This document shows positions 1-53,399 of a DNA stretch of 64,000 bases, piece after piece. Origin of the DNA: Haplodiscus bocki. Lineage: Eukaryota. The position numbers were made by a program, and so were the translations under genes. The stretch lies in contig OZ296648.1 of the NCBI GenBank assembly GCA_965655095.1, positions 142,910,001 to 142,974,000 on the forward strand, written 5' to 3'. Within the stretch, counting starts at the first letter, position 1; each line of letters begins with the position of its first letter. The notes beneath the pieces were generated by a model, which saw nothing but the letters and a program-made list of their open reading frames with translations, did no database searches and had not been told where the DNA came from.

Positions 1-329
1 TGAACGCCAGATTCTACAGCTACTAGTCGTCTAACTCCAGAAAGATCTTATGTTCGTACAAAACATACTTATGAAGCAGAAAACTGGGACCTCTCCAAAG
101 CAGTTCTCCATCGACCCACCGAGTGCAGGTACAGTAACAAACTCCTCAGTGCCCAAGACCCATGAGCTGCCACGAGCATCCGCTTCCCAAACTATCCTGT
201 TGGGCGACTCCAAAATTCTTAAATTTTCTGCTTTGGCTTCTGCTCGTATCCCTTGCTAATCCTCTTCAAGTTTTCAGACGCTTCATCCAGCAGTATCGCC
301 GGACACAATTTCCACATTCAACGCCCTGG

Positions 330-973
330 AGAAACAAACAAAAGATGACCTCTCACGTTAGAAGTCACTACTCTCAAGCATACAAAGTGATTACTCCTTT
401 CTGTATGACAAGATTCGCCAACTGGAAGCTGGCTCCAACAATACAATCCTTTGGCGGCTACCATCGGTACGATTCATCTTCGTTTCAGCAAAATCAGCAC
501 ATCGCCAGTCTAAACCTATTGATGATGAGACTACCGGTTACTGGAGTCCTGTTTTCCGAACTCATCCCTATGGCTACAAAATCATCATCCAACTTCACCC
601 TTATGGAATTGGTACTACAGCCGGACAATTTGCAACACTCATCTTCGACTTTTTTTCCTGGGGACTACGATGGTCTTTTACGCTGGCCATTCCGTAAAGT
701 TATTCATCTTAGCCTCAGGGACCAGCTGGACTCACTCAATGCGTGGACGCAAACAATTCAACCGACAAAAGAACCCTTTTTCAGACGACGAACCTCTTCT
801 CCCAAGAACGAAGCTTTCGCTGTTACCTTTACAAATACATCCCACATTCTCAAGTTTTCAGCAAAACTGACGGATACATTGTAAATGACACTTGTTATAT
901 TGAAATATCGTTTTCTGACACAAGTGTGCCCAAATCATCTAATCAAAAACTTCCATTTCCTCCCTTTTCCTAG
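330..973 (+). pseudogene. TRAF-family coiled-coil + MATH (TRAF-C) domain gene, intronless, frameshifted
   Basis: Joining frames across ~650 and ~830 gives LYDKIRQLEAGSNNTILWRLPSV...YWSPVFRTHPYGYKIIIQLHPYGIG...FFPGDYDGLLRWPFRKVIHLSLRDQ...YKYIPHSQVFSKTDGYIVNDTCYIEISF*. The motifs SPxFxT-xxGYK, G(D/E)YDxLLxWPF and YxxxDTxYI are typical of TRAF MATH domains. Confidence 0.88.
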
Positions 974-1930
974 AACCCTCTAATCAATCTTCATCTTCTT
1001 TAATTAGGGTGAGTTATCGCGTTATGACTACCGCTCAAACCTAATGAAAAATCGCAGTTTTATAGTTTTACAATATTGAAAAATTGAAACTAACCTCGAG
1101 GGATTTCAGCCCACAATTCGGAGCTCGAGGTTGCTCAGTTTTTAGATAAACACCGAATATTATCAGTGCAGTTTGTATATTTGTTCATTATACAGGAAAT
1201 ACGAGCTAATTAAAACTACGAAGGAAATGAAGTTGACTTACCCAGCAGGAGTTCCTGAGCTGTTGCAAAGAAATTTTTGGGTACAAACACAACACCCTGG
1301 TGACCCAGGAAATACGAGAGATAATAAGTTGAATATACCGACTATATGGCAGCAAAACTAGAGATTGCGTTTGCGAATAAATATTTGCCGACATTATGGC
1401 GTCAGACGGGAGATTACGAGATTACTCGGGTGGAAGTGCACAATTTGATTATGAAAATTAAGAAAAATTAAATTTTCGAGTTTGCCCAATTTCTACTATC
1501 AGCCCATTGGCCAGTAGGTTTGACATGTAGAACATGCGCCGTTTTCTTATTGGTGGCATGAAAAAAACAGCATGATGCCATTTTAAAGTTTTTTGGCACA
1601 ACTGAAGAACTCTTTTATTCACTCACTCGCTTACCGTCAACAACTTGCTCTTTTCTTTTCTCCTCTTTCTTACTCTTAAAACTTCGAAATTTCTTCTCGC
1701 CTTGCTTTTCTCGATCTTCGAAATTATTCCTAGTCAAATTCTGACTTGGCCGCAAAACGCTCATCAGCGAAAATATTCTAAATCGAATTTTGACTTAGCC
1801 GCAAAACCACAATAATTCTGAAATATCGCCATTCCCCACCTCTTCACGCCGATCAAATGATGCTAAAGCAAACACTGCTATCTGCAGGCGCTCTTTTATT
1901 GGACGATAGTTCGATTGCGCCATAACTGGT

Positions 1931-2335
1931 TATAAATACCCCGGACACTCTCGTTTCGTTCTTTCGCTCTCTACAGTCAACTAGCCTACTTCCCCGAGGC
2001 GAAACTCTCTTCCACTTCAACTTCATCATGAATTGAAACCCAAATCCTCATCATTGAATTCAATCTAAGACAACTTCAAAACTTGTCTTTGCCAAATTCC
2101 CTAAACTCTTCTTCGAAATTATTCCAAGAGAACTTAAAAACTTGTCGTAGCCGCAAATTCTGTTACACAGAGCCAACTTACTTGCTCCCAACTTGCTCGC
2201 CGAATAATTCTACGGGCTGTCGCCCAAATCAGCAACGACACATGACCATCCGGTTTTAAATACCCAGCGCACTTCCATAACATTCTTTCGCTCGCAACAA
2301 TTTACCAGCTCAATTCTACGAGGCGAAACTCTTCT
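1931..2335 (+). repeat. Diverged duplicated TATA module
   Basis: TATAAATACCC...TTCTTTCGCTC...CGAGGCGAAACTCT at ~1931-2010 recurs as TTTAAATACCC...TTCTTTCGCTC...CGAGGCGAAACTCT at ~2256-2335. Confidence 0.75.
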
Positions 2336-2831
2336 CGACCTCCTCCTCAATTCCTAACTTTTCTTAGTCGAATCTTCTTATCACTTCTCAGTGAGCGGAA
2401 CTGAACATCCACGATCGACCAACACCTACGTAAAGAACACGAACTTCAACACGATTCTGCAACTTCATTGATGGTATCAGTGAGTCTCTCATTTCAATTA
2501 CTAGCAGAGTAACTCTCGCTGGCAATTCTTGGCAGATTTTTGCTTTTCAAATCCAGTAAGTTGTATTTCTACTGGTTATTCGAAAATTGTAAGAGTAAAA
2601 GATAAACCCTCTCAACAAATTCCGCATTTGAGATAAAGGGATATAGGAGAAATAGCTCAGTAACCGTGAAAACGGGTGACACTGAGTCTTGGAGAAAAAT
2701 TGAAAAACCAAAAAAATTCAAACCCCTCCAATAAATTCGAGGACTATGTCACGGTTTGTGACAAAAGGGGAACTAAGATCTCTCGACCAGTTACTATGCT
2801 AAGCGAGTACTGAGTCGTTAAATAAAAAGCT

Positions 2832-3072
2832 AAAATACATGAAAGCGCCTCGTCAGTGGATTAAAACTTGACTAAGAGAAGACACTGAGAGAATTGACTT
2901 GGTTAATTGCTTTCATGCATGTTACGACAGTTGTTGACAAAAAACTAAAACGGACAACTTACTGACGTAAAAGTAAAATACATGAAAGCGCCTCGTCAGT
3001 GGATTAACACTTGACTAAAGGAGGACTCTAAGAGACTTGACTTAGTCGACTGCTTATGCATAATACCACAGT
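2832..3072 (+). repeat. Direct repeat with ~140 bp period
   Basis: AAAATACATGAAAGCGCCTCGTCAGTGGATTAA(A/C)ACTTGACTAA occurs at ~2833 and ~2975. Confidence 0.9.
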
Positions 3073-3502
3073 CTAGAGATAAAAGGTGATATCCCGTTCA
3101 ATAACACCGTTTGACTTATGTCACGGCCTGAAGAAACGGGATTTAAGGAAATTGACCCGGTTGACTGCTTTTTGATTTGTTACCGAAGTGTTAGCTAAAC
3201 TGATTACATATAACATAAGAGTAAAACTAAAACGAAACGAAAGGCAAAAACGCTGAGTTAGAAACAACGGATGTAACCATTTGTCCTGGCTCCAAAAGTG
3301 AAAAAGCCAAAAACTTACCTCAACTTAATTATGACAAACATTTTCAGTAAGTTTTGGAAAGATTTGTAAATTTACTGTTATCAATTGCTGTATTCTCATT
3401 TATTCAAATAATAAAAATATCAGCTGAGCTTAATATCTAATTTGATGTATTTCGCTTTATCAAAAACTCCTATGCCTTAAATTTCGAATTTATCATATAA
3501 CT

Positions 3503-3542
3503 TCAAATACTTTGGATATTTGTCAAATACTTTGGATATTTG
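3503..3542. repeat. Perfect 20-bp tandem duplication
   Basis: TCAAATACTTTGGATATTTG x2. Confidence 0.95.
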
Positions 3543-4364
3543 GATGTATACTTTGAAAATTGTAATGCTGGAGGATACTTTTTGCCTGGTGATACTGATT
3601 TTCTGTTAATCGTGGAAGTCTGTTTGAGGAGGATAAATATACAGTAGATAGAAGCCTAATTCTTTGGATTTCGGGGATAGATTTGCTTGTTCCATAGTAC
3701 AGTTGAATGATACAAAATTAATATACTACAGTCGATCTGTGGTTGATATTAGATTCAATTTATAACATTTGGAAGATAGCTGCTGAATTTCAATAATTTG
3801 GATTTCTCAAATCTCAGCCCTAATAATCTAACTCATTCGAAATATCATTTTATCTAGTACACATTGGCATTGTACAAGTTGATTGCCTTTTCCGTATATT
3901 CACCAAATATTTCGCCTCTTATTTCATACTCTTTCTTTGCTTACCAAGTCCTTGCTAGTAGAACTTACGCAACTTTGTTTGCGCGGTTTCGCAAGGCAAA
4001 TTTACGAAGCTAATAACAGTGTAAGCTTTTGAGACTTTCTTATACGATAACGCAGACATATGGCTGCACACGCCGCTCAGCAATATTAGCGAGAACAATA
4101 GCAAATGTTTAATAATAACTTAGTGCACCCGCGACAGAGTATTTCTTTGATGTCAAGTTAGAAAAAGATTTAGACCGATCGAGACTTAGAAATCTCGAGT
4201 GCTGTAACGTTTCTCTCAAAAATTGGTGTTTTTGGATAAGAAGATCAAGGGAAATATTTGATTGTGCGGTTTTTTAATAAGCGGAAGTATTGTTCAAATG
4301 AGCGAAAGATGTCGTTCAAAGAAACTGCTGCGTTAATGAGTGATTTCGAAGTCAAAATTTCTCG

Positions 4365-26449: not shown

Positions 26450-27770
26450 ACTTTGAAAAAGAATATAACAGAAAACATACTCTGCTGACTATCAGGGAAA
26501 TAAAAATTGAAAATTTTTCGCATTCTTTTTCTTCTAGTTTCGGCATTTTTATAATATTTGTTATGTACCAAGTTTACAACGAGTACCTTTTTGTACCTGG
26601 CAAAAATTTTCGATTAGCCAAGTTTTTTCTTGTTGCTTTTCGAGACTGATAAGGATAATTGACGAAATATCTTGAAAAAATGAACGCTTTGTAAACTTGG
26701 GATTGTCGTTTTTTGAAAAACACCGGTGATTTTCTTGAACCTATGCTGCACGGGTTGGTCCTAGGGCGCTTGTGAAATATTCTTTTCCGTGGAAAATTAG
26801 TTTTATCTATATTGCCAAGGGTATAGATATCTTTCGAACAGTGAGAATTCGGTTTTTTACTTCAAAAGAAACATAGTCCTTGGTTTCTTTAATGTACAGG
26901 CAGCTGTTTCTGAAGTTCAAAACAGCAATAGGATTCCAAGCAAAAATGTGCAGAGAACTTAAAATTTAAATTTTTCTTGAAAAAAGTAGCAACGGAAATG
27001 TTTTGAAGCAATTTCTTTGGAACGTGGTTTTGAATCAACATTTTACATGGTGTCAGATTGAGAATCAACTGTTTTTTGTCGTTTCAGGCTTTTAAGGAAC
27101 AATTTGGCTGAAAACTCAGATTTTAAAAAAGAGGTTTGTTGACGAAAGGTCAGGTTCTGATTCGTTTACTCCGTTGAAAAGTTAATTTTTGTAACTCTTC
27201 ACTTTTGAACTCCAATAATCTGACGAATGTTTTTGTATAAATTAGTTTTGGAACCGAAGAGTCAGATTCTTCTTCTGTTCTTCATGTTTTTCACAAAGAA
27301 CCAAAATTTTTCACAAAGAACTTTTTTAAAACTCATTAGACCTTCAAAACATGATTTTCGTCATTTTAGAGGAACCTCTAAACTGAAAAGACAACAAAAC
27401 AAATTTTTTCATCATTTGCCCCATGAAGCGGAGAAATGTTTCAGCTTACAATATCTTTATCCGACAGATAATAGCACTAGATGCTGAAACATTTGTCTTC
27501 CTACAACTGTAGAAGGATGTTGAATTTTGTTCCTCCGCTGCTGTTCCATTTTTCTTTCTGCATGAACACGATATATGCAAAACCTGTTTGCTACTAATGT
27601 GCTACAAGAACGAGTTATCTTTCCTCCAAACATGTCTGAATAGTTTGAGAAAAAAATTTGGATTAGATGGAAATAAATGATATATTTGTCAGTAAAATTA
27701 CTCAACAGCATACTATAGAATGTTGCATACAATTTCCTAAAAACAGACTCCGACATTTTTTCAATCCGTC
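26450..27770 (-). pseudogene. Protein-primed DNA polymerase B (pPolB), C-terminal half, very decayed
   Basis: Weak motif traces in the expected order: IEKMSESVFRKLY (EMWEC-like), QII..VTK..VNKPLF, KKSPVF.K (KxxPGLFK-like), KIFNFYFP. Confidence 0.5.
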
Positions 27771-27774
27771 TTCC

Positions 27775-28900
27775 AAAAGAAGGCGCGCTCCACAAGTCAA
27801 CCACAATTTCGCAGTGAGAATACTCATGAGACAATTGAAGCAGACCAGGTTTTGTTGGCCTTTCAACAATTGGCGACGAACAGTAATTCAGCCAAATTCA
27901 ACAAAGAACATCAGTAGAATCTCGCAATTGCCTAAATCCCTCACAACAACAATGGCCACTTTTGATGTGAAATCAGAAAAATTCGGACTGTTTGAAGATC
28001 TATTGCAAACAAGTTTGGAAATCCCCAATCAGCTGACAGAAAAAGATAAAATAAACTACTTCCACTCTCTCATGCAAGGTGACGCACTGCAAACCTTCAA
28101 AAACATCGCCAGCCCCAACACAGAGAATTTGGGAGAAACCCTGACTGTGTTCCGTAGAAAGTACGTAAAACCTCAGTCAGTGGCTACGGCAAAACACAAA
28201 TTTCAACAACTGGTCTTCTTTCCCGCAAACCAGAAGTTAATTGATTTTCTCGATGAACTCCAGAAATTGGCAGAAGACGCATTCGGAGTTGCCGCTCAAG
28301 CGATCATCGAGCAATTCATCCATGCCAAAATGCCTGGTCACCTGAAGAAATCAATTAACCAGGCACATTTGGAAATTGGCACATATGAACAGATTGTGTC
28401 GCATCTTGAAAGAGAGTTGGAACTAAATGGTTTGGAAGCCCGAGGTGAAATGCCAATAAACACTGTGACGCAACAAGCCCCTCAGCAAAACTCCGAAAAG
28501 CCCAAAGCAACGCGCCACCATTGCACAAAACCAGGACAATAGCAAAATCAGTGCCCACAACTCAAACGAGAAAAAGTCCAAACCCGAAATAATCTTAATA
28601 GTGCCAACAATAACAATGGTAGTGCCCAAACAAACTCCAACCCCAATAATAAAGTTTCAAACAATACCAAAGCAAACAATACAATTAATCAAGGAGACAG
28701 AAGCTCTAGACCTGTCTTCCCACCCTGTGAGACCTGTGGTAGCACTAACCACTCCACAGAGAAAAATTACCTTGGAGCAAACGCAGCAAACAGACCGCTT
28801 CCCCGGAATAGAATACCGGAAGGACAAAACCAAGTCCAACAGAGAAATGTTCAAAGCAACTCAGATGGGAATGTCCAAGCTGCAGCCCAAACTTTAAACT
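27775..28900 (+). pseudogene. gag: gag (5'-truncated) with two decayed zinc knuckles
   Basis: MATFDVKSEKFGLFEDL...KINYFHSLMQGDAL capsid-like region; RHHCTKPGQ*QNQC (~28512) and CETCGSTNHSTEK (~28726) knuckles. Confidence 0.85.
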
Positions 28901-29369
28901 AGCCACGCCACGTCTTCACTCCGGAGCCGCATGTGACAGACCGGAGACAAATGAAATATCAAAACTCCCAACAATTCCCGAGGTTGTCTGGCAGCAACCT
29001 ACGGAAACAGTTACAGAAAACCATAACTTACATAATAATAATAATAACTCGACTTTAAAGACAAATGTCGCAAACCAAACGTCGCCACTCGAGAGAACCC
29101 AACCACAGAACCACGTAGCCGCCACGGAACAACCTTCACGAAATCAAACAGGGAATGAGCCAGTATCGTTCCTTAACTGCTCCTTAATTCCTCTACCGAT
29201 ATCCAAAATACAGAACAACGTGTAGTGACTACCCCTAACGGAGATACAAAAAGTCCACCTCTCACCACTGCAACCCCACTAATTTAGGAAGGGTTGGTAA
29301 GAGACGAACAGACAATCTAGGTATATCTCCCATTAACCTCTACAGTAGTCCTGAAACGAAAGCAAGAAA

Positions 29370-32300
29370 TGCTCTATGTGCCTCTGGATTTTGAGAATAT
29401 TCTTACGGTAGATGCTCTGGTGGATTCAGTAGCCTTTGTCAATGCACTTGCCCAGGATGACTTGGACACAATAAAACAGAAATCCCGAATAATATTCTCA
29501 AAATAGACGACACTCCCGATTTTCAAATACAAGTAGCCAAAGGCTAATTAGAAAAACCATTATCAACAGCCACACTAAAATTTGAAATTGGAGATAATAT
29601 CTTCGTTGAACACTTCGTCCTAATGAAGAAAAATGACAGGGCCAATCTTTGGGTTGCATTTTATGGGGAACAACAGTGTAGTCGTTGACACGACACACGG
29701 CCTCATACATTTTCCACACTTGACAATGCAAATTAAAACAGCCTCAAGTGAGACCACAACAAAACCACAGCCAGTCATCACTGACGATGCCCTGGCCCTT
29801 GTCGACGACAAGAACAATCATAGCCTTTGTTGACCATCCGTCAAAATGGAACAAAAGGGGGACTGTGACACCGTTGGAGAAGTTTACGGAAAAAGCAAGT
29901 TTGCTGATTTCTCATTCAATGTCAACAATATTGACAAAAGAAAAGCAGTCAGAGTAACCAATGCAACGGAATCACCATATCTAGTCAAAAAGCACACACA
30001 CATTGCAGAGTTCTCCGTGGTTACTCCGGAACAATCCAAGCACATCAAACCAGTAGATATGGCAATCCCTAGTATGATTCCACAAGGTGATCCCGACCTG
30101 ACTGCCTACCTAAAAAACTTCTCAGAACGAATAACCCCGAGCAACAACACAACACATTCTGGTTCCCAACACCTGAAAATTCTGGAAAGCCTGAGGATCA
30201 CACCCCAATACAGACAAGAGACCTCAAGGAATTGAATGAACTCAAGGACAAGGAAAAACTCAATCCACAAGAGAGCACAGAATCTCGAAACAAAATTTCT
30301 CAAACAATTTGATTGGACTGACACACTCTTTACAGAAACGGCGAAACAAGCAATTGAAGATATTCTGGTTGATTATCATGACATCTTCGCCAGACAGAGA
30401 TAGGATATTGGGATGAATACGGAGTTCAAGGTAAAATTAACTCCCAAAGACGACAAAGCTGTATATAGCCAAAGTCTACCAATGCCGAGCCACCTGAAAG
30501 AAAACCTAATTGTCGAATTAGCCCTAATGCACAAATATGGAATCATCACAGTACTGCCTTTCTCCAAGTACGCGAGCCCCATATTCGTACAAAGGAAGCC
30601 CAACGGAAAATTACGTTTCATTGTGGATCTCCGGAAAATCAACAGTCTGATTGCGGATGACTACACTAACAACAATCATCCAGTTATCACTCTATCGGCG
30701 CAGCACAACATTTGACTGGGAAGTCCCTGTTCTGCAAACTAGATTGCTCCCAAGCTTATCACTGTTTGCAGATGGCGGACCAACGGTCAGTGGAAATGCT
30801 TACATTCAATTTTGCTAGCGGAACTTTTGCCTATAAAAGACTTGCACAAGGTCTTAGCAGATCTGTGTCTGCTTTTTCAAGTTTGATGCGTGAGTACTTG
30901 GACCCAGTCGTCCAAGCTGACCAATGTGCTCAATACGTAGACGACATTGGAATTGCAGCCATTAATGCTACGGACCTTACCCGGAACATTCGGGCAGTCT
31001 TCAAGTGCATTTGCCAAGCAGGATTGAAGCTGAAAAAAGAAAAATGCCATTTTGGAGTCAGACAAGTTGGATTCTTAGGAGGAACATTTTCACCAGAAAG
31101 ACTATCACCGCCAGCTCGGAAAATTCAAAATTTCCTTGACAAACTTAGATTCCCCAAATCAAAAAAGGCATTACAGCGATATCTGTGTTTCGTTAACTAT
31201 TACAGAAAATATAATCCCATACTGGCTGAAAGACCTAATCCGTTCTACAGATTGCTTAAAACGGAAGTGCCAATCATTATTACGTCGGAAATGAAAGAAA
31301 CATTGCCTTCACAGATTCAGTCAATAAGGCTTTCAGTGACGCTTGCCAATTAGCACTTAAATAACCCATTACAGGAAAGCAGCTTGTCTTTATGACGGAA
31401 GCCAGCTTCAGAAGTGATGGATATGCCTCCATGATCGAAGACAATCCCGATCAGAAAATACAATCAAAGCGGAAAACGTACGCCCCAGCAGCGTTTGGCT
31501 CAAAAATTTTCTCCCCTGCACAACTCCAGATGTCCACATACTCAAAGGAGTTTTTGGCAGAATACATGGCATTTCTAGAGTTTGCACACATTCTGTGGGA
31601 AGCAACAAAGCCAACATTTCTCCTAACAGACAACAAGTCAGTCACACGTTTTTTCCAAACAAAGCCACTTCTGCCAGAACTCTGGAATGCATGTGATTAT
31701 GTGTAGCAGCATAACTTCGAATTAGCACACATTGCTGGCCCAGTCAACACTGCAGTTGACTTTCTCTTCAGACTTGAACTTAAAGTCACGGAGAAGATAC
31801 GTCTCAAAATCCGGGAAGATATACAAACAACACCTATCGAGGTGACCACCTCTTCCTCGGATGTCGCTGATGAAGAACAATTATTCTTCAAGCAAGCAGA
31901 CAACAACGTTGACTCAGAAGACCAAACCCTTGAAGGAAAAGAGCAACCTAAACAAAATGCGAAGCAATGGGCATTGAATGAAGAATCACTCGTCTTGCAA
32001 ACGAGTGTGAATGAATTCACAAAGACCGACGGAAACACTACGTCGTATTCCATGAACGGAATTAAAGCAAATGCGAGAATACGAGGAGAGCAAGACGTCG
32101 ATCTTGTGCTGAAGAACATGGAATTGAAAATCTTAGGCCGACTTTAAGATGAAGTATTAATAATGACAGACTCACGATACCAAAATTACAAAGCAAATGA
32201 AGACCATATCTTTCTTAAAGATGGTCTATTGTTCAGGAAATATTTTGGAGAAACAGGTAGCATCAAATACTACCAAACTCTCATCCCAAAGTAATTAGTT

Positions 32301-33754
32301 AATGAAGTTCTGAGCAGCCTACATGGAGAATTCGGAAAACACTCCAAAACAACAACTGCTTACAGGGAAAAATATTTTTTTCCAAAAATGGCGCAATTAA
32401 TCAAGGAGTGGGTCATGTCATGTGAGCAATGCATTAGAGAATCACGAACTAACCGTAGCTTTTTCCGCCCTCCCCTGCAAAACTCAAATGAGCACATTAC
32501 TGCGCCCGAAGATGCCATGCAAATTGATTTGGTTCCGGAATTACTGCCATCTGGTGGCTATGAAAACATTGTGACAGCCATGGATGAGGTTCATTTGCAT
32601 ACCCGACATCAAATCAACACGCTAAAACAATTGCTGAAGTCTTATTTAACATAATGACAAATCACGCGTACATACCAACGACGCTCATCTCAGATAAAAG
32701 TACAGCCTTTATGTCTCATGTAATTAAAGAAGTGGCCGACGTCCTTGGTATTACTCCAAAGCACGCCACTACAAAGCACGTTCAAACAGTTGGGTTACTT
32801 CAGCGATCTCACGCGTCAATCAAGCAAGCATTGAAGATAAAGACAGGCGAGCGGAGATCACTGTGGCACAAGTACGTCAACATTACAATACTTCCTCAAT
32901 TACAATACTTCTTACCACACAAATATTGGTCGTGAGCCAAGTTGAGCCTTTCACGACCGTATTCTTTACAACAGTTTGGACTTAAAATTGGGAATTCGCC
33001 CACAGCAACAGCCCATTCCTACTTCGCAATTATCCAAGATGCTTTTGATCAAACAGAGATGATCCATCAAGATATTCGCAAGAATTCCATCCAAGCATAC
33101 ATTAAATACAAGGCCCATTATGACAAAAAAGCCAACGCTTCAAAACTTAAAGAAACAGATTTTGTATACATCTTGCAACCGAAAGCGGATCATCAAGGCA
33201 GCAAAATTCCATTCACAGAATTTCGATGGATTGGCCCATATATTATCGAAAATGTATTACCCAACAATAATTATTTGGTACGCAAAATTGGCACCAACAA
33301 GACGCAAGTACTTCATCGGATGAGAATGCGTCAGTTCACACCCCGCCAACCACCAGCTGACATAAAAGTCAAGCCTCCAGAATATAAATCCGATCCCGAA
33401 GTGAGTATTCATCAGGACGATTTATATGGAAGGGTGTGGGAGTATGACTTTGAGCAGCCAATTTTCGACGCGGAGAACGATAAAGCGGCACCACCCAATC
33501 TTGAAGAGATTCCACTACAGTCTGATTATTCAACAGAGGAAATGAGGAACACACCAGGAAATCCATATGTCTGTTCCCCGGAGATTTTACCATGCACAGA
33601 CGAGGTCACTGACGTAACAGATACGTGTCCACATATGGAACCTGATGTGGAGACAAGCTCGGAACAACAGGAAAATAGTCCAACTAACCCCCGCAGTTCC
33701 AAATACAACTTGCGTCATAACCCGAAGCCTAACTGCAATGACGACTACCGATAG
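29370..33754 (+). pseudogene. pol: pol: protease, reverse transcriptase, RNase H, integrase (multiple stops and frameshifts)
   Basis: ALVDS(V)A protease; SPIFVQRKPNGKLRFIVDLRKIN, LDCSQAYH, LAQGL and YVDDI (RT); TEAS...EFLA...TDNKS (RNase H); H..H..CEQC, MQIDL, ISDK and WIGPY (integrase). Confidence 0.95.
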
Positions 33755-34785
33755 TAGTTTGTCCGCTCAACAAGTGTGTTCCACGTAACGCGCACCTAGC
33801 CGTTCCAAATTCAAGGAGCGCGCTACGTGGCACATACGTGCCAGTCCAAATTTCTCACACATTCTATTCTGGATATTCCCTGGTGACTAACTCACTTGCT
33901 ACTCAGTCTGGAATACTTCAAAACACGGCCACTGTGTCTCTACAGCTTACATCAAATATAAAGCTTACTACGACAAAAAATCCCAACGCTTCAAATCTCA
34001 AAGAAGCCGATTATGTATACGTATTACAGCTGAAAGCGGATCATCAAGGGCAAAAATTTCCCTTTGCAGAATTTCGCTGAATTGGCCCGTACAATATTCA
34101 AAAGATGTTACCTAACAACAATTATCTGGTAAGCAAAACTGGCACCAACAAGACGCAAGTGCTTCACTGTATGCGGATGCGTCAGTTCACACCCCGCCAA
34201 CCACCAGCTGACACACAAATCAAGCCACAAGAAGATAAACCCGATCCGGAGGTGATCCTTAAACACGGTGATTTGTATGCCAGAGCGTGGGAGTATGATT
34301 AAGAGCAGCCAATTTTTGAAGCCAAAAAGAATAATGCAATGCCACCCAACTCAAACGAAATTGCAGTGCAGTCTGATTTTTCAACGCAGGAAATAAGGAA
34401 CACACCAGGAACCACACACGCGTGTTCTTCAGAAATTTTTCCTCAAACGGACGAAGTCAGTGACGTAACAGATACGTATCCACACATGGAACCCGATGTG
34501 GAGGAAAAATCGAAACAACCAAAAAGCAGTCCGACCAACCACGCAGTTCCAAATACAACTTGCGTCAAAACCCGAAACCTAATTGCAATGACGACTACAG
34601 ATATTAGCTTGTCCGCTGAACTAGTGTGTTCCACGGAACGCGCACGTAAACGTTCCAGAAATTCAAGGAACGCACTACGTGGCACATACGTGGCAGTTCA
34701 AATATTCCGCATATTCTATTCCGGATATTCCCTGGGGACTAACTCAATTACTCTTCAGTCTGGATTACTTCAAAACACGGCCACT
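33092..34785 (+). repeat. Diverged tandem duplication (~850 bp) of the integrase C-terminus and 3' flank
   Basis: AYIKYKA.YDKK..ASxLKE..WIGPY...CNDDYR* plus CAAAACACGGCCACT occurs twice (33092-33932 and 33943-34785). Confidence 0.92.
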
Positions 34786-35000
34786 AATACTAAATTCATC
34801 AATATTCTCGTTTTCTCTACACAGGCCGCATTCACTTTATCCATTATTCCTTTTCTCTTTTTTTCTCTGAACTTTTGAACTAACGAAAACAATATATACA
34901 ATGAACATAATGAAGACAAAACAATTTCATGCAGTAGAGAGGCAGAATGGCAATAAGCAACGAGTGCAGCAGTTATCAATGACCGGACAGACAATAGCAG

Positions 35001-38000
35001 TCATGGCATTCCTCGTTGAAAGGCTGGCGTAGCTTTTCTATCTCGCCCACTTTTCCGTGTTTTTCCTTGGGGACGTTCAGATGCCAAGGCAGAAGCAAAA
35101 CTGGGATCATCGACAACAGTGCGTTTTCGGGAATTGAAAGAATGACTTGAAACCTCAAACTGGCGCGGCAACTTAACTGGAATCCGAACCACTCTCTTTT
35201 TTCCCTTTCCTGGAGAAGAAGGATGACGACTATGTCCAGCAATCTCACGGGACGGAGCAGCACCGGGCACATAATCAACTTGCCCCCCTTCCACGACTAT
35301 TGAAAGGCGGACACCATATCGAGAAGACGATAGATGGCGGCCGCACAGCACTCAGAGCATACCATTGTTCGCTGGTACCCTTAACCGCACGACGACGATC
35401 AAGTGCCTTCTAGAAGCATGTCCTCAGATCTGCAATGATCTGGGCCGATGACCCGCTTTCCACCTCTGACCACGAGGCACAAAGGGAACTGCTAGTGATG
35501 CTGTCAGAAATTGCAGTAGCCTCAGAAAGCATTGCGACAGCCGTCTCTGAGAAGAAGCTGCGCTGCGTGAGAACAGGATCTCTCACAAAATCCTGAACAC
35601 ACAACAGGACACCGCGCACTTTTTCCTCCCTGATAACCACCCGATCCAAGTTTACCGTAAACCTCTATCCAGATGTTACTGGTCCACGAATGGCAAGTGC
35701 TGTTAATTGAAAGACCAAAAACAAACATGATTGAGCTAGAAGTTGCAACAAGATTGAAACCGCACTTTTGGAGACAATACATAGTTTATACAAATGGCGC
35801 CGCACACGAAAGCCAACCTGTGAAGAGCAGAAAGTCAGGACGTTCCCTACGTCAGGGCGGCTCTTTGTTGAAGTCCGCTCCAGCTGCCTCTGCGCCTGCA
35901 CGAACGACTGGTACTCTGACTTGCAGGCTTCCATCTCTGCCCCCTCACCCATATTTTCTCCAACAGTCCAACAAGCAACATGTGAAAGAGTTGCATAGGA
36001 GCATGATCGTCTCCACCAACCAGAATGGGGGGCCAAAACAACTGAACACTTGGCCTATTGCGGACCTTGCGGCAACAGTCGACAGCACACAGTTAACGAA
36101 GTCCTCCAGGAACTTCCTGCAATCTCGCCCGAACTCTCTCTTTAGGTGGGAACTTCCCTCTTTTTCAAGAGCTGATGACACCCGAGTACCAGCAAGGAAA
36201 CGATCTTCTTCGATGGCAGCAAATTTTGAGTGATTAGGAGCAATGTACTCCTCCCACTGCTCAACTGACGGCAAGACGCTGCTGTTTGATTTCCTGAAGA
36301 AGACAATAAACGAAATGGGCGACTTCACCGAAGGCGTAGTACCCATAATCGGCAGCGGACTGAGAATGTACAAAAATGTTGGCAACTGAAACAGAACATA
36401 CGTCACAGACATGGTAATGACGTCAAACCCACCGGCAATGTGCCAGTGCCACGATTCTCCAAATGCAACGAAAGAAAAAATGTGGAACCAACAGGGAGCC
36501 ACACTAAAGCGTGCCTAGAAATTTTGAACAGATCATCCGGAACGCCACGTTACCGCTGACTCGAAAAATGAAAAGTGCCTATGTACTGACATATTTCAAG
36601 CAGAATGTGGAAGACACGGAACTTCAAACGAGCGAGTTGGTCCAGATAAAAGTAACCATCCATTCCCTTTTTCTGAACATCACAATTTCAATTTAAATGG
36701 GTACGACACAGTGGCAATAAAATCAAAGAGGGAGATCTTACCACAAAACAATTGCCGTCATCTTTCCGCCCAGCCTCCTTCAGGTACGAAACAATCAAAG
36801 TCCACGCTCCCACAATATTGGCCACGACGTCGACGAGCTCGGGCATCACAAGGCTGCTGCTGATGATGGCTTTCTTCAAAGCTGGTCGAGAAGCCATCCC
36901 GTCACGACTCTCCACCCCCTTCAGCTTGTTCACAATGAACTCAATCATAGAGTACGGGTCCAGAGTTCCGAAATCTCTTGACGCACTCTGTCACAAAGAA
37001 CGTTTGAAAAGGCGCAAGTCAAACAAGCGATACTCGATCAGTTTTTGCTAATATTCACTGCCCAAGAAGTTTACGTAAGCTTCCACAAGTGCATGTTGAC
37101 CGCCCTGCATTGACAACACACGATCATCTGAACCAATTGCGTCAAAAATGCGTCCCAACATAACCACCTCCTCAATTACATTGCTGCTGAGCCGATCAAG
37201 AATTGCCACACACAACCGACGAAACTGGTTGTTATCCCAGCATCGAATGAACACCCAGATGTGCTCGCCCTGCTCCGCAAACTCTATTCCGCAATAGCCA
37301 TGTGCCTTTGTTCAAGGAACACCTTGCTCAAAATGCGGGGGTACATGCCATTGAGGATGATTGACTGAAAGCAAAACAACAATGTACAACGGGGATGAGT
37401 ACGTACAATACGGCAGACGAAAAAAAAATATTGTCAGTTGTCTCAAATGTGTGAGGTACAATACGCGGCTAGCTCTGTTCCATGCGTTCCACACGGCCCA
37501 AAACGTCATCTAATCCTGTGAACAAAGAAGCAAATGATTAACACACGCCAAGGAACGTACATGGATGGTACGGCAACAAAACTTACTGCTCATTATTGGC
37601 TGCAGAATTTGTGCCCTCTCCTCGGCGCAGATCGACCCCCAGAAAGTCACAAGTTGATGCCCTGTTTCCTCAATTGGAGTCACTACAGGGTCGTTACTGA
37701 AATGATCTACAACAACAAAGACAAAAAGGAGGAGCAATCATGGAACGCCACAAAAATATCCCCATCTGAAGTGATACATACCATTGTCAAAAGCCTCTTC
37801 CAACAACTCTCGACTGCGTTCGTGGCTGCTCACTGGCAAAAGGCACTGGAGCAATACCAGCCAAGGGGACCAAGCGCCGTGTCAAAACAGCACGTCGTCG
37901 TCGAACCTGGCTTTGTGTCTCAGCTTCAGTCAGGATGTCATCACAATCAGACGAAATCATACCAGCTTCACTGATGCTTATAACATACAAAGAAGATTCA

Positions 38001-38732
38001 ACTGTCCCGAACATGGCCAAAACAATATGAGATATTGTTAAAAACTTGATGCACAACCCATGGGAGATCTTTTTTCAAGACTGGGTACGTCTTCATCACA
38101 AGATGTTGCACGTCCCACCTCAAACTCACTTCCGGAATCACCCGGAACATCAGCAAAAGCATCGTCAGGAAGAGCAGCAGGCTCCCTGGCAGAATCATAT
38201 ACTAAAACACAAAAGCCCCATGATGCCATCTTCATGTTTGGGCGCGCGCTGGTCACTAGCTGATGGAAAACATAGATGGCCTCTGTGTTATTCCTATATA
38301 AAAACTAACGAGAATGAAGAATGCAGACTCACACAATGGCAGTTCGGATGAACCGACATCACCCTCCAAAACAGTTTCTGAATGCAGATTCGCACGCATG
38401 AGAACATCATTGAAAATGAAACCCTCAGATTCTGCGCCCTCATCTCTTTGATCGCCGCCAACCACGTCCAAAAATGAATCCTCGGCGTCATCGTCTGCAC
38501 CAGACACAGGCTCAGTACCACAAATGGTATTGTTGCTGAACAGCTCTAAAGCTCTCCGAACGCACTCCTCTCCTTCTCTTTCTGCAACATCGAAACTGGG
38601 GACAAATGGGAGAGCAAGGGACAAACTCTTCTCTACTGCTCCTTCATCAATCTCCAATGCCCCTTCTTCATTAACCTCGTCCGCAAACGGGGATGTCCTC
38701 CTCACTTCTCCTTCTTCTTCGATCGAACTCAT
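35001..38732 (-). pseudogene. Antisense, intron-containing accessory gene(s) of unknown function inside the Gypsy element
   Basis: Chain of minus-strand ORFs from an acidic N-terminus (MSSIEEEGEV, 38732) to a basic C-terminus (KGKKRVVR...FQRGMP*, 35001). A GT-AG intron at 36741-36673 (GTAAGA...TTCAG) removes an in-frame stop. A second at 36432-36386 (GTGGGT...TTTCAG) joins frames. Confidence 0.7.
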
Positions 38733-39157
38733 TATTACGAATAATGAATGACCTGGATATTGAGCTATTACATGGTGGATTTACATATTTTTTCAAAAAC
38801 TCCTAAATATTTTATTAAAAATCTGATTAATTTGTCTGCCAGCAATTATGTCAGCAGGCTTTCTCAAAGACACCTTGAGGAACGATACTCAAGTGTTCCT
38901 TAAATTTAGAGACTCCATTTTTAAGATTTGTTTACATCTCATCAACTCGAACTTCACTTCCTACATCCTACCTTCACCGATGCAGAGCAGCGGCGCGGGA
39001 ACATCAAAGCAAATCCCGCTTCATGAAAGTGGATTATCATTACCCGCAACCCTGATCATTCTCTCATTTTTCACTTGTCCAATTCAGTTGCCCGATCAAG
39101 AAATTATCTAAATTTCTTCTTAAATTTAACCTTTCCTCTAATATTTCGATCGATTCG

Positions 39158-39854
39158 GTGGATTCTGATGTGTTCTTTGTGGAACAAATCTCCAATGAGC
39201 CCAGTCCACAACGATACAACTCCCCGAACATCCTTAACTCGACTGAACTATCGCAGAATCATACAGCAGGAACGCCCTCAGATTCCTCGATCGCATTCAC
39301 AGAACCCCAAATTTTGACCATCAATAACATCTCCAATGAGCCCACAATGCCATACGGATTTGGACGGCAGTTCCCAATCGTTCCACCGAGCTTGAATGAC
39401 CTGAACTTGCCGCCCAATCCATTCAACATCCTGGCAATAATGGTGGTGGTAAACCGTATAGAGGATGGAAAAAACGACAATTACAGCCCCCAGTCACCAG
39501 AGCCATCTGATCCATCGCCCATATCAACACCACCCATGAATGTCAGTACATTTAACAGTTGGGGAACACCGCACAGCACAACTGACGACAACCCCCTTCG
39601 ATTCGGAGGACGAGCCACGACGTGTATACTGGACTTCTTCCCTAGATGAAACCTTTTATTCGGAAGGCGAACCCAGACAAATATACCTATTGTCCAGTCT
39701 ATCACCGCCGTCACCCCCTCGCAAGATGAAGAGGAAGTTAGAGATAGGAATGTCCTTTCCAAAAAGAGGGGGAGTGTCGCAACACGTCTGCGAAGCCTGC
39801 GTTCAGACGATCCCCTCAACAAAGGACGTCCCAGGTCCATCAAACAAGGATTAG
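39158..39854 (+). pseudogene. Sense accessory ORF: S/P-rich, probably disordered protein with NLS-like and CxxC motifs; one frameshift near 39595
   Basis: MDSDVFFVEQISNEPSP...TTDDN joins FDSEDEPRR...PPSPPRKMKRKLE...HVCEACVQ...NKD*. The first codon in this copy is GTG. Confidence 0.65.
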
Positions 39855-39951
39855 AACTTTGAAGACATTCAAACTTACTTATGAACTATTAAACTTATGA
39901 ATTCATCCACTCAATTATTTATCGCATCATGTAATCAGTAATTTATATTTA

Positions 39952-40073
39952 GGATACGTAGTAGGTACGTATCCACCTACTATTCATACATGTACTTCAT
40001 GTAGACGATACGTAGTAGTTACGTATAGTCCCATAATGTTTTTTCCATGTAGAAAGCACGTATCCGATACGTG
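39952..40073. other. Cluster of four short perfect hairpins at the 3' LTR boundary
   Basis: GGATACGTA-gtagg-TACGTATCC (39952-39974); TACATG-tactt-CATGTA (39987-40003); ATACGTA-gtagt-TACGTAT (40008-40026); CACGTATC-c-GATACGTG (40057-40073). Confidence 0.9.
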
Positions 40074-40328
40074 TAATCCTGGTGAACTGATCCTTATTGG
40101 GACGGAATAGATACGGAGCAAACGAATATTCACTGTATTTTTATATTATTTTCAGGTGCTCTTTATATAATTAAGGTAACTAATTAATATATAAATCCAC
40201 CTTTAATTGTGCAGTAAGTTATTTATATTGACGGTTTTAACAAGTTTTCAATATTTCGGCTATTAGAACAGAGCTTGACTTTAAAAGTGGATATCTGTTC
40301 CGTATGTGTTCCGTCGTAAATAATCTGG

Positions 40329-40336
40329 TGACGTCA
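40329..40336. promoter_or_regulatory. CRE-like palindrome TGACGTCA in U3
   Basis: Perfect in copies 1 (10971) and 2; TCACGTCA in copy 3. Confidence 0.55.
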
Positions 40337-40933
40337 CAAGAATTTCAGCCAATCCGCTGTGCTTCTACGCTGTTTCACTTTGGACGGACACGGAACGTCT
40401 ACGTAGCTAGCAGAATCATTCTCCTCAGTAGCACTGCGGAAAGCAGTGCTACAAGCGGCTACGTAGTCGCCACGGAACGCTCCGGCCAAAGTGAGGCGTG
40501 AGCTTGTAGAAACGTGGAAAGAGCTAGCAAAAAGCCTATTTTTGTTCCCTACAGTGGTTTAATTGATGCAGCGTTTAAACATGGACCTTTTTAGCATCAT
40601 AAACTTTACTTTTTCATACATTAAACTGTTTTTTCCACTGTACTTTAGTATTTTCCCTGTATGGAAATTTATTTGATCTTTTGTTTATGTTTTTTTTATT
40701 GTGTCGGCGCGGGAATAACCACTTTGATGTCCATTTCCGACGGATCGGACCCGTACTTTTTCCGTCGAAATATGGAAAAGACGCGGTCCGTGAAGGAAGA
40801 AATGGGCGGAAGGGTGTTTATTTCCCGCCAGAGTCGGCATCTTTTCCTTTATAAATATTATGATTTTAGTACTTTTCCCTATTTGTGCCTTTTTTTTGGC
40901 GTGTAAACAATTATGTTTCCCGCCAAGGAAAGG

Positions 40934-40941
40934 TATAAATA
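40934..40941 (+). promoter_or_regulatory. LTR TATA box
   Basis: TATAAATA conserved in all three LTRs (11580, 40934, 47190), 165-190 nt upstream of the LTR ORF start. Confidence 0.75.
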
Positions 40942-41125
40942 GGAGAAATTAAAGTACTATTATTATTATATAAATTGTAGCTTTTCGGTGTTGTACCATT
41001 TATAAAATGACTTGACTAATTGTATTCATCGAAACTCTTTTCCCTCATAATGAGAGGAGATCAACACTATTAATCAAAGATAAAGATCATAATTCAGTCT
41101 TCATCGCTGACAAAACTTTTCCCTG

Positions 41126-49924: not shown

Positions 49925-50071
49925 GTTATTAATACATCTATTGGTTTTGAGATTTTCCACTGCAATGCTTCTTTTTAATGCAATGCGTATCGCAACCCAA
50001 GTGGTTATGAAGTTTATAGTGTGACTATTGGAATTTCACCGAAACGGTAAGAGAGTTGATCAACAAACATA

Positions 50072-52829
50072 CTCTTTAAAACTGGCGCGTGCAAAATTGC
50101 CTGCAAACGCAGGTAACTTTACCTGTAATTCGCAGTTAAAAAGGTCCCACACGCAGTTTACCTGCGTTACATGCAGTTTACCTGTAAAACCAGGTAAATT
50201 TACCTGCGTCGAGGCGGCAAGCACCTCGCGCAGAATACACGCGAATTGCCTGCAGGAGCATGTACCTGAATACCACAGGCATTTTACAGGTAGCTTTACA
50301 TGCGCAACTCATGCAAATTTGCCCGCGACTAGCATGCAAAATTGCCTGCTTTTGCAGGCAAAAATACATGCACTTACAGGCAAAAACACTAGAATCGCAG
50401 GTAAAAATACCCGCCAAACGCAAGCAAAATTAACTGCAACCGCAAGAAAAAATACCGGCACATTCGCAGGCAAAAAAACCTGCAATTCCACGCAGAATTA
50501 CCTGCAATTGCAGGCAATCTGCTACGACACCGCGGGTAAATTCACCTGCAAATTGCAGATAAGTTAGCCTGCATCATGCTGGTGAAGTTAGCTGCAACTT
50601 GCGTGCTTTATTTAGTGCTATAGCGTGTATTCTGCGTGGGGTGCTTGCCGCGTAGAAGCAGGTATAATTACCTGTTTTTACAGGTAAACTGCATGTGGGG
50701 CCTTTTTACCTGCGAACTGCAGGTACAGTTACCTGCGTTCGGAGATAATGCAATCTTGTCGAAAATCTATCGTTACTTGCGGCAAAACTAGAAGAGAAGA
50801 CGCACAAACAAAGGACGTAAAGTTGCAATGCATTGCTAAAGCTCATCAATCGATATTACAAAATCCTCTGGCTAAAAGTTACAGGCACATTTAAAGAACA
50901 GACGAGAAAACCCCTCAGACTAAACATCAAAAAAACTTGATGTCGTCAGAAAAGAATAACAATTGAGCAATTCTTGCATATTTCAGTCCATACAGATACA
51001 GATATGAAGTCAACGAAAGAAGCCATTTTCCAACAAAAAACTCCAAAATCAATCCATTCGTGGTCAAATCACTTTTGAAATCCAGTTGCAAACGTTTCCG
51101 TAAAAGTGCAATACAAGAAAACTTCAATCTAGAACCTGAAACACAGCCGAAAAAAATTACTCCAAGAACCGAGGCAGCTATATTCATTAATACAAAGAGA
51201 TGAAAGAGAACTTGTATCCCATTTCCTTCCTTTATATCTGAACAAATTTTGAGCACTAGGTCCAAGACGTGAATGCAACTCAAAATGTTCAAGTTCTTTC
51301 TAGTTTCCGCCAACCAAAAAACATTTCCGGCAACATCGGGGCCACCAACGAGCAGTTGCAGTAAAAGGCTCGATTATTATTTTTGAAAAAAAAACTATTG
51401 CAGTAAACGGAGTAGAACATCAACAGACAGTTAACATAAAAAAATGAGAAAACGGTTCATATGGTTTTCAAAAGTATTAATTGTTATTTCACCAATAATT
51501 GTGACAAAAGGCACACTGGAAGACACCCTGACATAGGGAGTAAAGTTGAATTGCATTGTTAAAGCTCATCAGTCGATATTAGAAATTTCTATAGCTGAGG
51601 AGAATGGGCACATTTATAGAAGAGACCAGAATACCCCTCAAACTAATCATCGAAAAGATTTGATGTCGTCAAAAGAAAAGCACACTTGAGCAATTTATGC
51701 AAATTTCAATCCATGCAGATATGAAGTCAACAAAAAAGCCATATTCCAACGAAAAACCCCAAAATCAATCCATTCATGGTTAAATCACTTTTGGAGTCCA
51801 ATTGCAAACGTTTCCGTAAAAGTGCAATACGAGAAAACTTCTACCTAAAACCTGAAACAGAGATGAAAAAAACTCATTCGAACAAACGATGCAACTTTTT
51901 CCACCAACACAGCGGAAATGAAAGGAAACTGTATTCAATTTCCTTCATTTACCTTTTAACAACTTTTGAGCACCAGGTCCCAGAGATGTATGTATCTCGA
52001 AAAAGTCAAGTTTTTTCTAGTTTTTGCAGGCCAGTAACACATTTCCCTCTTAGGCAGGGCCACCATTGACAGGTTATTTAATTGTGTCCGCTAACATGTA
52101 TCAGAACAAAAACATTACAGTAAATAGAGTGGAGCAACAGAAGCCTCAGAAATTTGAAAATTGGAAAACGGACTAATTGGTTTCCAGAAGTAATCAAAGA
52201 GTTGTATCATCACTACTCGCGAGAAAACTAGATCATAAGACGCCTAATTATAGGAAAAAAAGTTGCTTCGGAGTGATAAGTCTACTAGTTTTGCATCGGA
52301 TAAAAGTTGTCATTGTGATTTTACTTCACCATTTTTAGTTTCAAATTGCTTTAAGTTACATTTTTATGTAGTCCTATAAGATCCTTTTTTACGTTGTTTC
52401 CTCTTTAGATTTAAGTGACAACAGCCAGTTCCCGATCATTTTGATGGCAGTGAAGACTTTTTCAGCGAGCTGTTTTTTTGGATAACGGTTTGAAGAGCCA
52501 GCAAGGAACACTTCAACGTTTTTGGAACAAAATCAAATTTGAATGGTTCACCATTGACTTCAAAGGCAACAAATGGGTACTTTGGTCAAGGTGTTTGGAA
52601 CTGGATAAAAGGAAACGTCCCGAGGTTTGAAAAAATCCGCCCGGAGGCGAACAATAAAAACTTCATGTGAATTACCTGCGGGCGCAGGTAAATTTCCGCC
52701 AGTTACGCGCGGAAACCGCAGGCAACCGTTACCTGCGGAGATTTTGCCTGCATCCGCAGGTATTTTTACCTGCGGATCAGTTTACCTGTGGCCTTCGCAG
52801 GTAATTTTGCACGCGCCAGTTTTACAGTG
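50072..52829. mobile_element. CACTG-type (CMC/EnSpm-like) non-autonomous element ends with TACCTGC subterminal repeats
   Basis: Left end TA|CTCTTTAAAACTGGCGCGTGCAAAATTGCCTGC; right end GCAGGTAATTTTGCACGCGCCAGTTTTACAGTG|TA (33-bp TIR, 3 mismatches). Dense ACCTGC/GCAGGT repeats at 50072-50740 and 52670-52829. Confidence 0.75.
50765..52270. repeat. Diverged tandem duplication (~720 bp period, two copies plus the start of a third)
   Basis: AAAGTTG..TGCATTG.TAAAGCTCATCA at ~50819 and ~51542; TTGCAAACGTTTCCGTAAAAGTGCAATAC at ~51086 and ~51802. Confidence 0.9.
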
Positions 52830-53399
52830 TAGTAAAGTGCTCGAAGCCACTTGACACTGAATTCAGAAACAAATAAAAAATCGCCTCCATACGTAAAAGG
52901 AAACTTTTGCAAGGAAACAATCAATAAACTAATGAGCTGCATCAAAAGATATCGATGCTCTTCTCAATTTTCGAACAGTTCCAGTTAAACTGACCTTGAA
53001 GCGTCTTAGGCCTCAATCTTGAACCAACAAAGTTGAACCATTGAAAAGCAAATTTTTGTAATTTTGCGTGGATAGTTTCTTATTTTCAAAATAAATAGTG
53101 CACGATAAGAATACAGTGAAAACAAATGTGGTTGAGAAACTATTCCTGATGAGGAGAACGAACACGAAACATAAACATCTAATTAAAGCGAAAATTCGAG
53201 ACTTTTCCTCAAACAATTTATCTAGGACTATACTTTCTGCTATACAAACTTCCAGCCTCGTTCGATTTTTATACGATGATCGAAGAATTCTGAGTAAACT
53301 TCGTCCAAAAAATTGACAACTGTAGCAATTCAGGAGGCTAATTAACTCTTAAAAGAGTTACAATAACAATAGGCACAGTCGCACTGCGATATTTTCCGT

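Follow-up and report, generated by a model that had tools for sequence, protein, structure and literature searches.

Related elements and proteins

Burro/GYPSM1 of planarians is a giant Ty3/gypsy element with a mononegavirus-fusion-like env and a MATH_TRAF_C domain (PMC6431247, section 7), and interference with the apoptosis and ubiquitin systems of its host has been proposed for it (Arkhipova & Yushenova 2019, PMC6431247). As described in that section, its MATH domain lies within a polyprotein of ~4,900 amino acids together with BIR, BCL2, and ankyrin domains, its env is located between gag and pol, and in Dugesia tigrina MATH is found in an upstream accessory ORF. The element reported here, from Haplodiscus bocki, which we take to be an acoel from the orthology of its host TRAFs to a Convolutriloba gene, resembles Burro in its large size, Ty3/gypsy type, env, and MATH domain. 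By contrast, its TRAF gene stands alone as the last ORF, following env and a frame named ORF-Y, its ORFs are separate, env follows pol, and no Pfam matches to BIR, BCL2, or ankyrin were found in it. The element is a variant of the combination already known from Burro. In the cited section, the Burro precedent is a domain listing without a donor or a selection test; for the H. bocki element, a host relative, a lost intron, and purifying selection were found. Burro was the only such case found in our search of the openly accessible literature, which returned no description of an acoel element with TRAF or MATH.

The ancient errantiviruses (Chary & Hayashi, PMC13524379) share with the element the gag-pol-env organization, LTRs, a tRNA primer site, and a fusogen placed in class III by a feature search. 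Unlike them, the H. bocki element carries additional ORFs (X, Y, and TRAF), its pol contains a macro domain, and its LTRs measure 3.1 kb. TRAF, MATH, macro, and acoel go unmentioned in the main text of that article, and acoel names are absent from seven supplement files.

At the protein level, vertebrate TRAF1 (PMC6125299) is similar to the cargo of the element in having no RING and in combining a coiled-coil stalk with TRAF-C in a trimer, which for the cargo is predicted by a model. The TRAF2-type hot spots are kept in TRAF1 but are retained neither in the host clade nor in the element proteins; these two sets together have an extra coiled coil and form a separate group. Convolutriloba macropyga XP_075250303.1 has two coiled coils and a MATH domain like the cargo, and gene calls that read through the intron indicate the same intron position as in the host genes of H. 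bocki. Splicing, a single copy, and one degenerate zinc finger characterize the host form, whereas the element form has no intron, no finger, and a PAM2-like start.

Anatomy of the element and of its copy in the window

The window comprises 64,000 nucleotides of H. bocki contig OZ296648.1 (positions 142,910,001 to 142,974,000), and its 5′ end belongs to an inactivated copy of a ~23-kb Ty3/gypsy element that carries env and has TRAF as the last gene. The order of the element is LTR, tRNA-Met primer site, gag, pol, ORF-X, env, ORF-Y, TRAF, and LTR; gag is followed by protease, macro, RT, RNase H, and integrase, and then by the four remaining genes. The pol order protease-RT-RNase H-integrase, obtained by Pfam on frames of a sister family (family B; the window copy belongs to family A) and mapped onto the window copy, is that of Ty3/gypsy. 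The window copy contains a 2-kb internal duplication in the gag-to-integrase part.

The 3′ three-quarters of the broken cargo gene occupy 1..973 on the plus strand of the window. The gene starts 342 bp upstream (L031:9659; L031 and L032 denote DNA upstream of the window), and the full gene has ~440 codons in sister copies. The coiled coil and MATH are read in three frames across 1-973, with frame changes just upstream of the window, at ~620-660, and at ~790-830, and with in-frame stops near 8-50, 240-280, and 359-361. The second coiled coil (TRAF-N stalk) lies at approximately 302..425 (plus strand), as mapped from helix 248-288 of a sister-copy model, and belongs to the interface of the modeled trimer. 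It is followed by the MATH/TRAF-C domain at approximately 443..919 (plus strand), which includes two of the frame changes and is without the intron found in host genes near the domain end. One fragment of the window copy matched Pfam TRAF-mep_MATH at 2.3e-7, and the first-pass annotation, which had described a coiled-coil and MATH pseudogene from the letters alone, was correct on this point. Its interval of 330..1180 was right in placing an LTR after the gene, but the TRAF stop codon is at 971-973 (plus strand) and position 1180 is inside the LTR. Similarly, an LTR does adjoin the MATH gene as described, but at a distance of 41 bp instead of 200 bp and with TA (TATCGCG) instead of TG at its start.

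A short purine-rich tract at 1006..1014 (plus strand), likely the polypurine tract, abuts the LTR, and the same junction recurs at all 30 fetched loci as well as in families B and C. The 3′ LTR spans 1015..4136 on the plus strand (3122 bp, TATCGCG...CGCGACA), and a repeat scan detected direct repeats within it (1928-2025/2252-2349 and 2826-2912/2969-3055; span 1928..3055, plus strand). An LTR start with AG at 1012 had been considered and was dropped in favor of TA at 1015 after comparison with the ends of family B, and a 5-bp target-site duplication was dropped along with it. The termini of family B are TGTCGCG...TGCGACA; LTRs of families A and C begin with TA and end with CA (window 1015; L132-L137), and those of family B run TG...CA. 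The 5′ partner of the window LTR is located ~20 kb upstream (L032:1198-4328). Integrase is likewise present upstream and no spliced host TRAF gene is found there, in agreement with the retrotransposon initially proposed. The two LTRs show 238 differences over 3076 aligned bases (7.7% substitutions), a divergence that dates the window copy only loosely because the flanks are unmatched and no rate is at hand. The right flank, 4137..4140, reads GAGT and the left flank CAGA, so that a 4-bp target-site duplication is unmatched in the window copy. One family-B copy has the 4-bp target-site duplication AGCT and LTRs that are 99.7% identical, and we therefore conclude that the lineage moved recently.

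Directly after the 5′ LTR lies an 18-nt primer site that can pair with tRNA-Met(CAU) halves at their 3′ end (nine pattern matches versus two for the control). The nine matches are tRNA-Met 3′ halves with a genomic CCA (L122-L125) and look like retroposed primer fragments; a whole tRNA-Met gene was not found by ARAGORN in the four loci scanned.

The env of the element matched Monjiviricetes_fusion (PF24664) with an E-value of 2.6e-31, and fragments in the window copy matched at 1.3e-13. In an Atlas feature search, the top matches (0.96) were to PF24664, rhabdovirus G, and gB clusters, by which env appears to group with class III fusogens (gB/rhabdovirus G-like). The TRAF gene had been thought to take the env position; this is incorrect, as a separate env and ORF-Y stand upstream of it.

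Several further features were observed in the coding region. Within pol, a macro domain (E-value 5.7e-5) separates protease from RT (L100:3-2573; L032:6544-7137). ORF-Y (L099:1405-2085 and, immediately ahead of the window, L031:9040-9660) is a Pro/Ser-rich frame present in all four families, and its C-terminal ~60 residues are conserved (...W.I.FWD..RQE.T......QR..VP). ORF-X, between integrase and env (L031:3800-6370), is ~42% identical between families A and B. Neither ORF-Y nor ORF-X had a Pfam match, and the ORF-Y C-terminus had no Atlas match. An acidic antisense frame in the integrase-env interval (L031:3800-6370), also without a Pfam match, is kept in eight of eight family-A copies checked.

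Copies, families, and LTR linkage

A search of the 1.5-Gb H. bocki genome with window DNA 300-1000 gave 330 candidates, 40 of which were scored, and the 39 scored copies other than the window copy were 84-89% identical to it. A Pfam MATH search of the same genome gave 2967 candidates, 150 of which were scored. Neither 330 nor 2967 can be taken as a copy number, but both figures reveal a large repeat family. Among the fetched loci, 30 of 30 had the LTR junction directly behind the TRAF gene, and for further family-A copies fetched with their upstream 9 kb, env was present in eight of eight and integrase in seven of eight. Because 39 similar copies exist and every fetched locus has the junction, the association of MATH with the LTR is not due to chance, and the linkage suspected in the first-pass annotation is not restricted to the window.

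The copies fall into four divergent families, A (that of the window), B, C, and D, which are ~30-40% identical and have the same order of env, ORF-Y, and TRAF; the LTR junction behind TRAF was observed in families A, B, and C. Two arrangements of neighboring copies were also seen. Two family-B elements in tandem share an LTR (C3:37412594 and 37431283); this ~18-kb TRAF pair had been considered as a TRAF inside an LTR, a candidate that was rejected since the pair consists of two tandem elements with one LTR in common. In a ~7.7-kb pair (C5:12999381 and 13007094), the env-TRAF part is duplicated in tandem, and the two units are nearly identical.

The cargo protein

Pfam TRAF-mep_MATH matched all four of the uninterrupted sister copies scanned, with E-values from 3e-18 to 5.5e-13. 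The cargo protein of ~440 residues consists of an LNPxAxxFxP start, a first coiled coil, a Pro/Ser linker, a second coiled coil, and MATH; family D is shorter, lacking the start motif and the first coiled coil while retaining TRAF. No RING or zinc finger was found in the element TRAF proteins of uninterrupted sister copies. The absence of introns, first noted for the visible part, holds over the whole length of the gene.

At nearly all A and B loci found by a start-motif search, the stop codon of ORF-Y overlaps the start codon of TRAF in the sequence ATGA. This arrangement suggests that translation of TRAF is coupled to that of ORF-Y; termination-reinitiation is a route of such coupled translation.

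The AlphaFold prediction of the full-length cargo protein was poor (mean pLDDT 51). A homotrimer model of the sister-copy stalk and MATH scored 0.75 compared with 0.31 for the best control, a score that possibly reflects memory of solved TRAF trimers, and the model runs had at least 84% of contacts in common with pLDDT values of at least 82. The model passes the score mark, which 7 of 16 animal homo-oligomers and none of 30 eukaryote single chains attained. By this model, the cargo protein is predicted to trimerize.

Selection on the cargo

To estimate dN/dS, we used uninterrupted copies only, namely, 7 of family A and 21 of family B, with one misassigned B copy (L086) excluded. The codon-model omega was 0.138 for A and 0.148 for B, with 2ΔlnL values of 119 and 171, respectively, against omega = 1; dN/dS of MATH is about 0.14 in the two families. 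Pairwise omega for MATH was 0.11 and 0.13 in families A and B, and the coiled coils (0.07-0.13) had lower values than the linkers (0.19-0.59). Changes by codon position, 218/112/706 in A and 2059/1263/6231 in B, show a third-position excess. The two closest family-A pairs had an omega of 1.18 from very few changes, as expected of decay after insertion. The cargo TRAF is under purifying selection in both families measured, A and B.

Host relatives and origin of the TRAF gene

The closest relatives of the cargo are two spliced, single-copy H. bocki genes (L104 and L105), which have a GT-AG intron near the MATH end; the element sequence reads straight through this site. A private coiled-coil motif, FPLxxxKxxQYxHxxQxxV, is common to both genes and to families A and B. 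The only named host-type relative among 10 look-ups was C. macropyga XP_075250303.1, which is 46-48% identical to the two H. bocki host exons. Its longest RefSeq isoform contains one degenerate finger, and no RING was found in this isoform. Over ~16 kb upstream of each host exon, a RING profile had no match, although split exons could have been missed; a finger profile matched a control zinc-finger exon at 2.5e-11 and a remnant at L105 weakly. An intronless relative from another source (P0134) was not found in the H. bocki genome, where its best matches were 42-44%.

In a tree of the stalk and MATH with 35 rows, the element and host-type proteins were separated from canonical TRAFs with a support of 100/98, so that the element groups with the RING-less host genes in the comparison with host TRAFs that had been proposed. 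Families A, B, and C formed a starred clade on long branches, sister to and outside the host paralogues, whereas the placement of D was weak; a single capture was not rejected (p-AU 0.33). As A, B, and C are sister to the host paralogues, the donor was likely an old RING-less lineage and neither of the present paralogues. From this topology and the lost intron, the TRAF was likely captured through spliced RNA from that lineage. The paired LTRs, host relatives, and lost intron bear out the original idea of a captured host TRAF carried by an LTR retrotransposon. Because no RING was found near the host genes or in the Convolutriloba orthologue, loss of RING on capture is unsupported.

A second, decayed repeat family (L112-L119; L141-L145) contains TRAF pieces that are nearer to the host genes (34-51%). 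Some of these pieces form head-to-head pairs in multi-kb inverted arms that are 96-98% identical (for example, C3:129361213 and 129363724; C6:7796259 and 7798595). L113 and L114 align through the host intron site, at which L112 appears split, and no gag, pol, or env match was found in this family. Here, a foldback-type element may have acquired TRAF in a separate capture.

Possible function of the cargo

The serine finger and polar pocket of TRAF1/2/3/5 bind Px(Q/E)E motifs (PMC6125299). In an alignment with TRAF1 (SAS before FQRP), a serine finger of this type was absent in both host and element proteins. At β7, the glycine that the host keeps (NMSVG) has given way to other residues in families A, B, and C, and none of the four element families retains the R-x-Y pair unaltered; TRAF2 residue numbers were placed on the aligned motifs as we presume them to correspond. 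Since the groove residues are unlike those of the host, the element protein may not bind the ligands of the host protein.

On balance, we lean slightly toward the cargo being a selected accessory protein that competes with the RING-less TRAFs of the host or for their partners. An intron-free TRAF would have been acquired from the old RING-less host lineage via spliced mRNA, and its translation from a 3′ message would be coupled to that of ORF-Y. The protein would form homotrimers, as modeled, that could compete with, or mix into, host TRAF trimers, and this competition would damp a stress, defense, or cell-death response during replication of the element, to its presumed benefit. Against this reading, the altered groove and the PAM2-like N-terminus may point to another role. 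Accessory genes against host signaling characterize complex viruses but seldom occur in Ty3/gypsy elements. In the present case, a single genome reveals the closest host genes, the missing intron, persistence of the cargo in four families, and purifying selection. Being under selection and carried by the element, this version of a lineage-specific TRAF would offer a handle on acoel immune signaling via the binding partners of the host and element MATH domains.

A bolder form of this reading, which we consider doubtful, is that the stolen TRAF, kept through the whole radiation of a very abundant element lineage, antagonizes an undescribed defense or cell-death pathway of RING-less TRAFs in an animal group that lost Toll/NF-kB signaling. 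If so, the cargo with its PAM2-like tether would be a ready-made bait for that pathway. PMC12849515 reports that acoels are without the usual immune signaling and suggests an unknown response; TRAF and TNF go unmentioned in it.

It is also conceivable, if rather unlikely, that the TRAF was rewired as an adaptor for the life cycle of the element itself: LNPxAxxFxP would bind poly(A)-binding protein at its MLLE domain, and the MATH trimer would bind Gag, the Env tail, or ORF-Y. Such an adaptor would aid RNA stability, translation, or particle assembly. The proteins of families A, B, and C begin with the motif, which the host genes lack, and the groove changes relative to the host and the coupling to ORF-Y would suit this role. 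Constraint over the first 14 codons (omega of 0.10 in A and 0.03 in B) is in keeping with it, but these codons overlap the end of ORF-Y and provide few sites. The PAM2 Pfam match in B (E 0.005) is, at 16.8 bits, under the curated cut-off of 20 bits, and the family-A N-terminal peptide had no PAM2 match in Pfam. Family D, moreover, keeps TRAF without the motif or the first coiled coil. A literature search for PAM2, retrotransposons, and MLLE gave nothing relevant.

We regard as improbable the decoy favored in the first-pass annotation, in which a RING-bearing canonical TRAF truncated on capture would act as a dominant negative of signaling from TNFR or TLR to NF-kB. RING-less TRAF domains do act as dominant negatives, and the element protein has neither RING nor zinc finger. 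The H. bocki genome contains one TNFR-type cysteine-rich exon among 36 candidates (L140, C1:50853914-50854033) as well as a zinc-finger TRAF exon. However, no RING was found in the closest host clade, so that the lack of RING in the element gene stands while its loss on capture is without support, and the serine finger is absent in host and element. Two TIR frames were found among 24 candidates (L138 and L139), neither with a demonstrated TLR context and one preceded by ankyrin-like repeats. In section 6 of PMC12849515, acoels are reported to be without TLRs, MyD88, IRAK, NF-kB, and Toll pathway components. A TLR decoy is unlikely because the serine finger is missing and acoels are reported without Toll/NF-kB signaling; with H. 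bocki taken as an acoel, the proposed TLR target is not supported.

A neutral passenger, acquired a single time and simply carried along, whose low dN/dS would arise from an overlapping signal or from the choice of open copies, is already disfavored, and we give it very little credence. The window copy is a pseudogene, dN/dS was obtained from uninterrupted frames, and the closest A pairs reach an omega of 1.18 on very few changes, all of which fit a passenger; by contrast, the third-position excess occurs in both A and B, constraint tracks the domains, and the frame is retained across families only ~30-40% identical. An ordinary host TRAF gene with a neighboring LTR insertion, a reading with a negligible chance of being right and with nothing more in its favor than similarity to TRAFs, is refuted by the position of TRAF between paired LTRs, behind pol with its integrase and behind env, with the LTR junction and the same order at many loci, and by the spliced true host genes elsewhere.

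Other elements in the window

The TRAF element had been likened to a cassette at 35-40 kb of the window, a parallel that did not hold. Window 27667-40960 is a separate gypsy element with gag, RT, and an integrase containing a ~850-bp tandem duplication, and no MATH, env, ORF-X, or ORF-Y match was found in it. Because MATH and env matches are missing there, the parallel reduces to extra DNA behind integrase in both elements. The cassette behind that integrase (35-38.8 kb) is GC-richer and broken, with mostly minus-strand frames; eight frames of the 35-40 kb region had no Pfam match. A ~650-bp repeat at 40277-40957 occurs again at 10919 and 46524. Finally, an element that has nothing to do with the TRAF element occupies window 50070-52831; it has inverted arms of 41 bp at its termini, further inverted arms inside, and short repeats.
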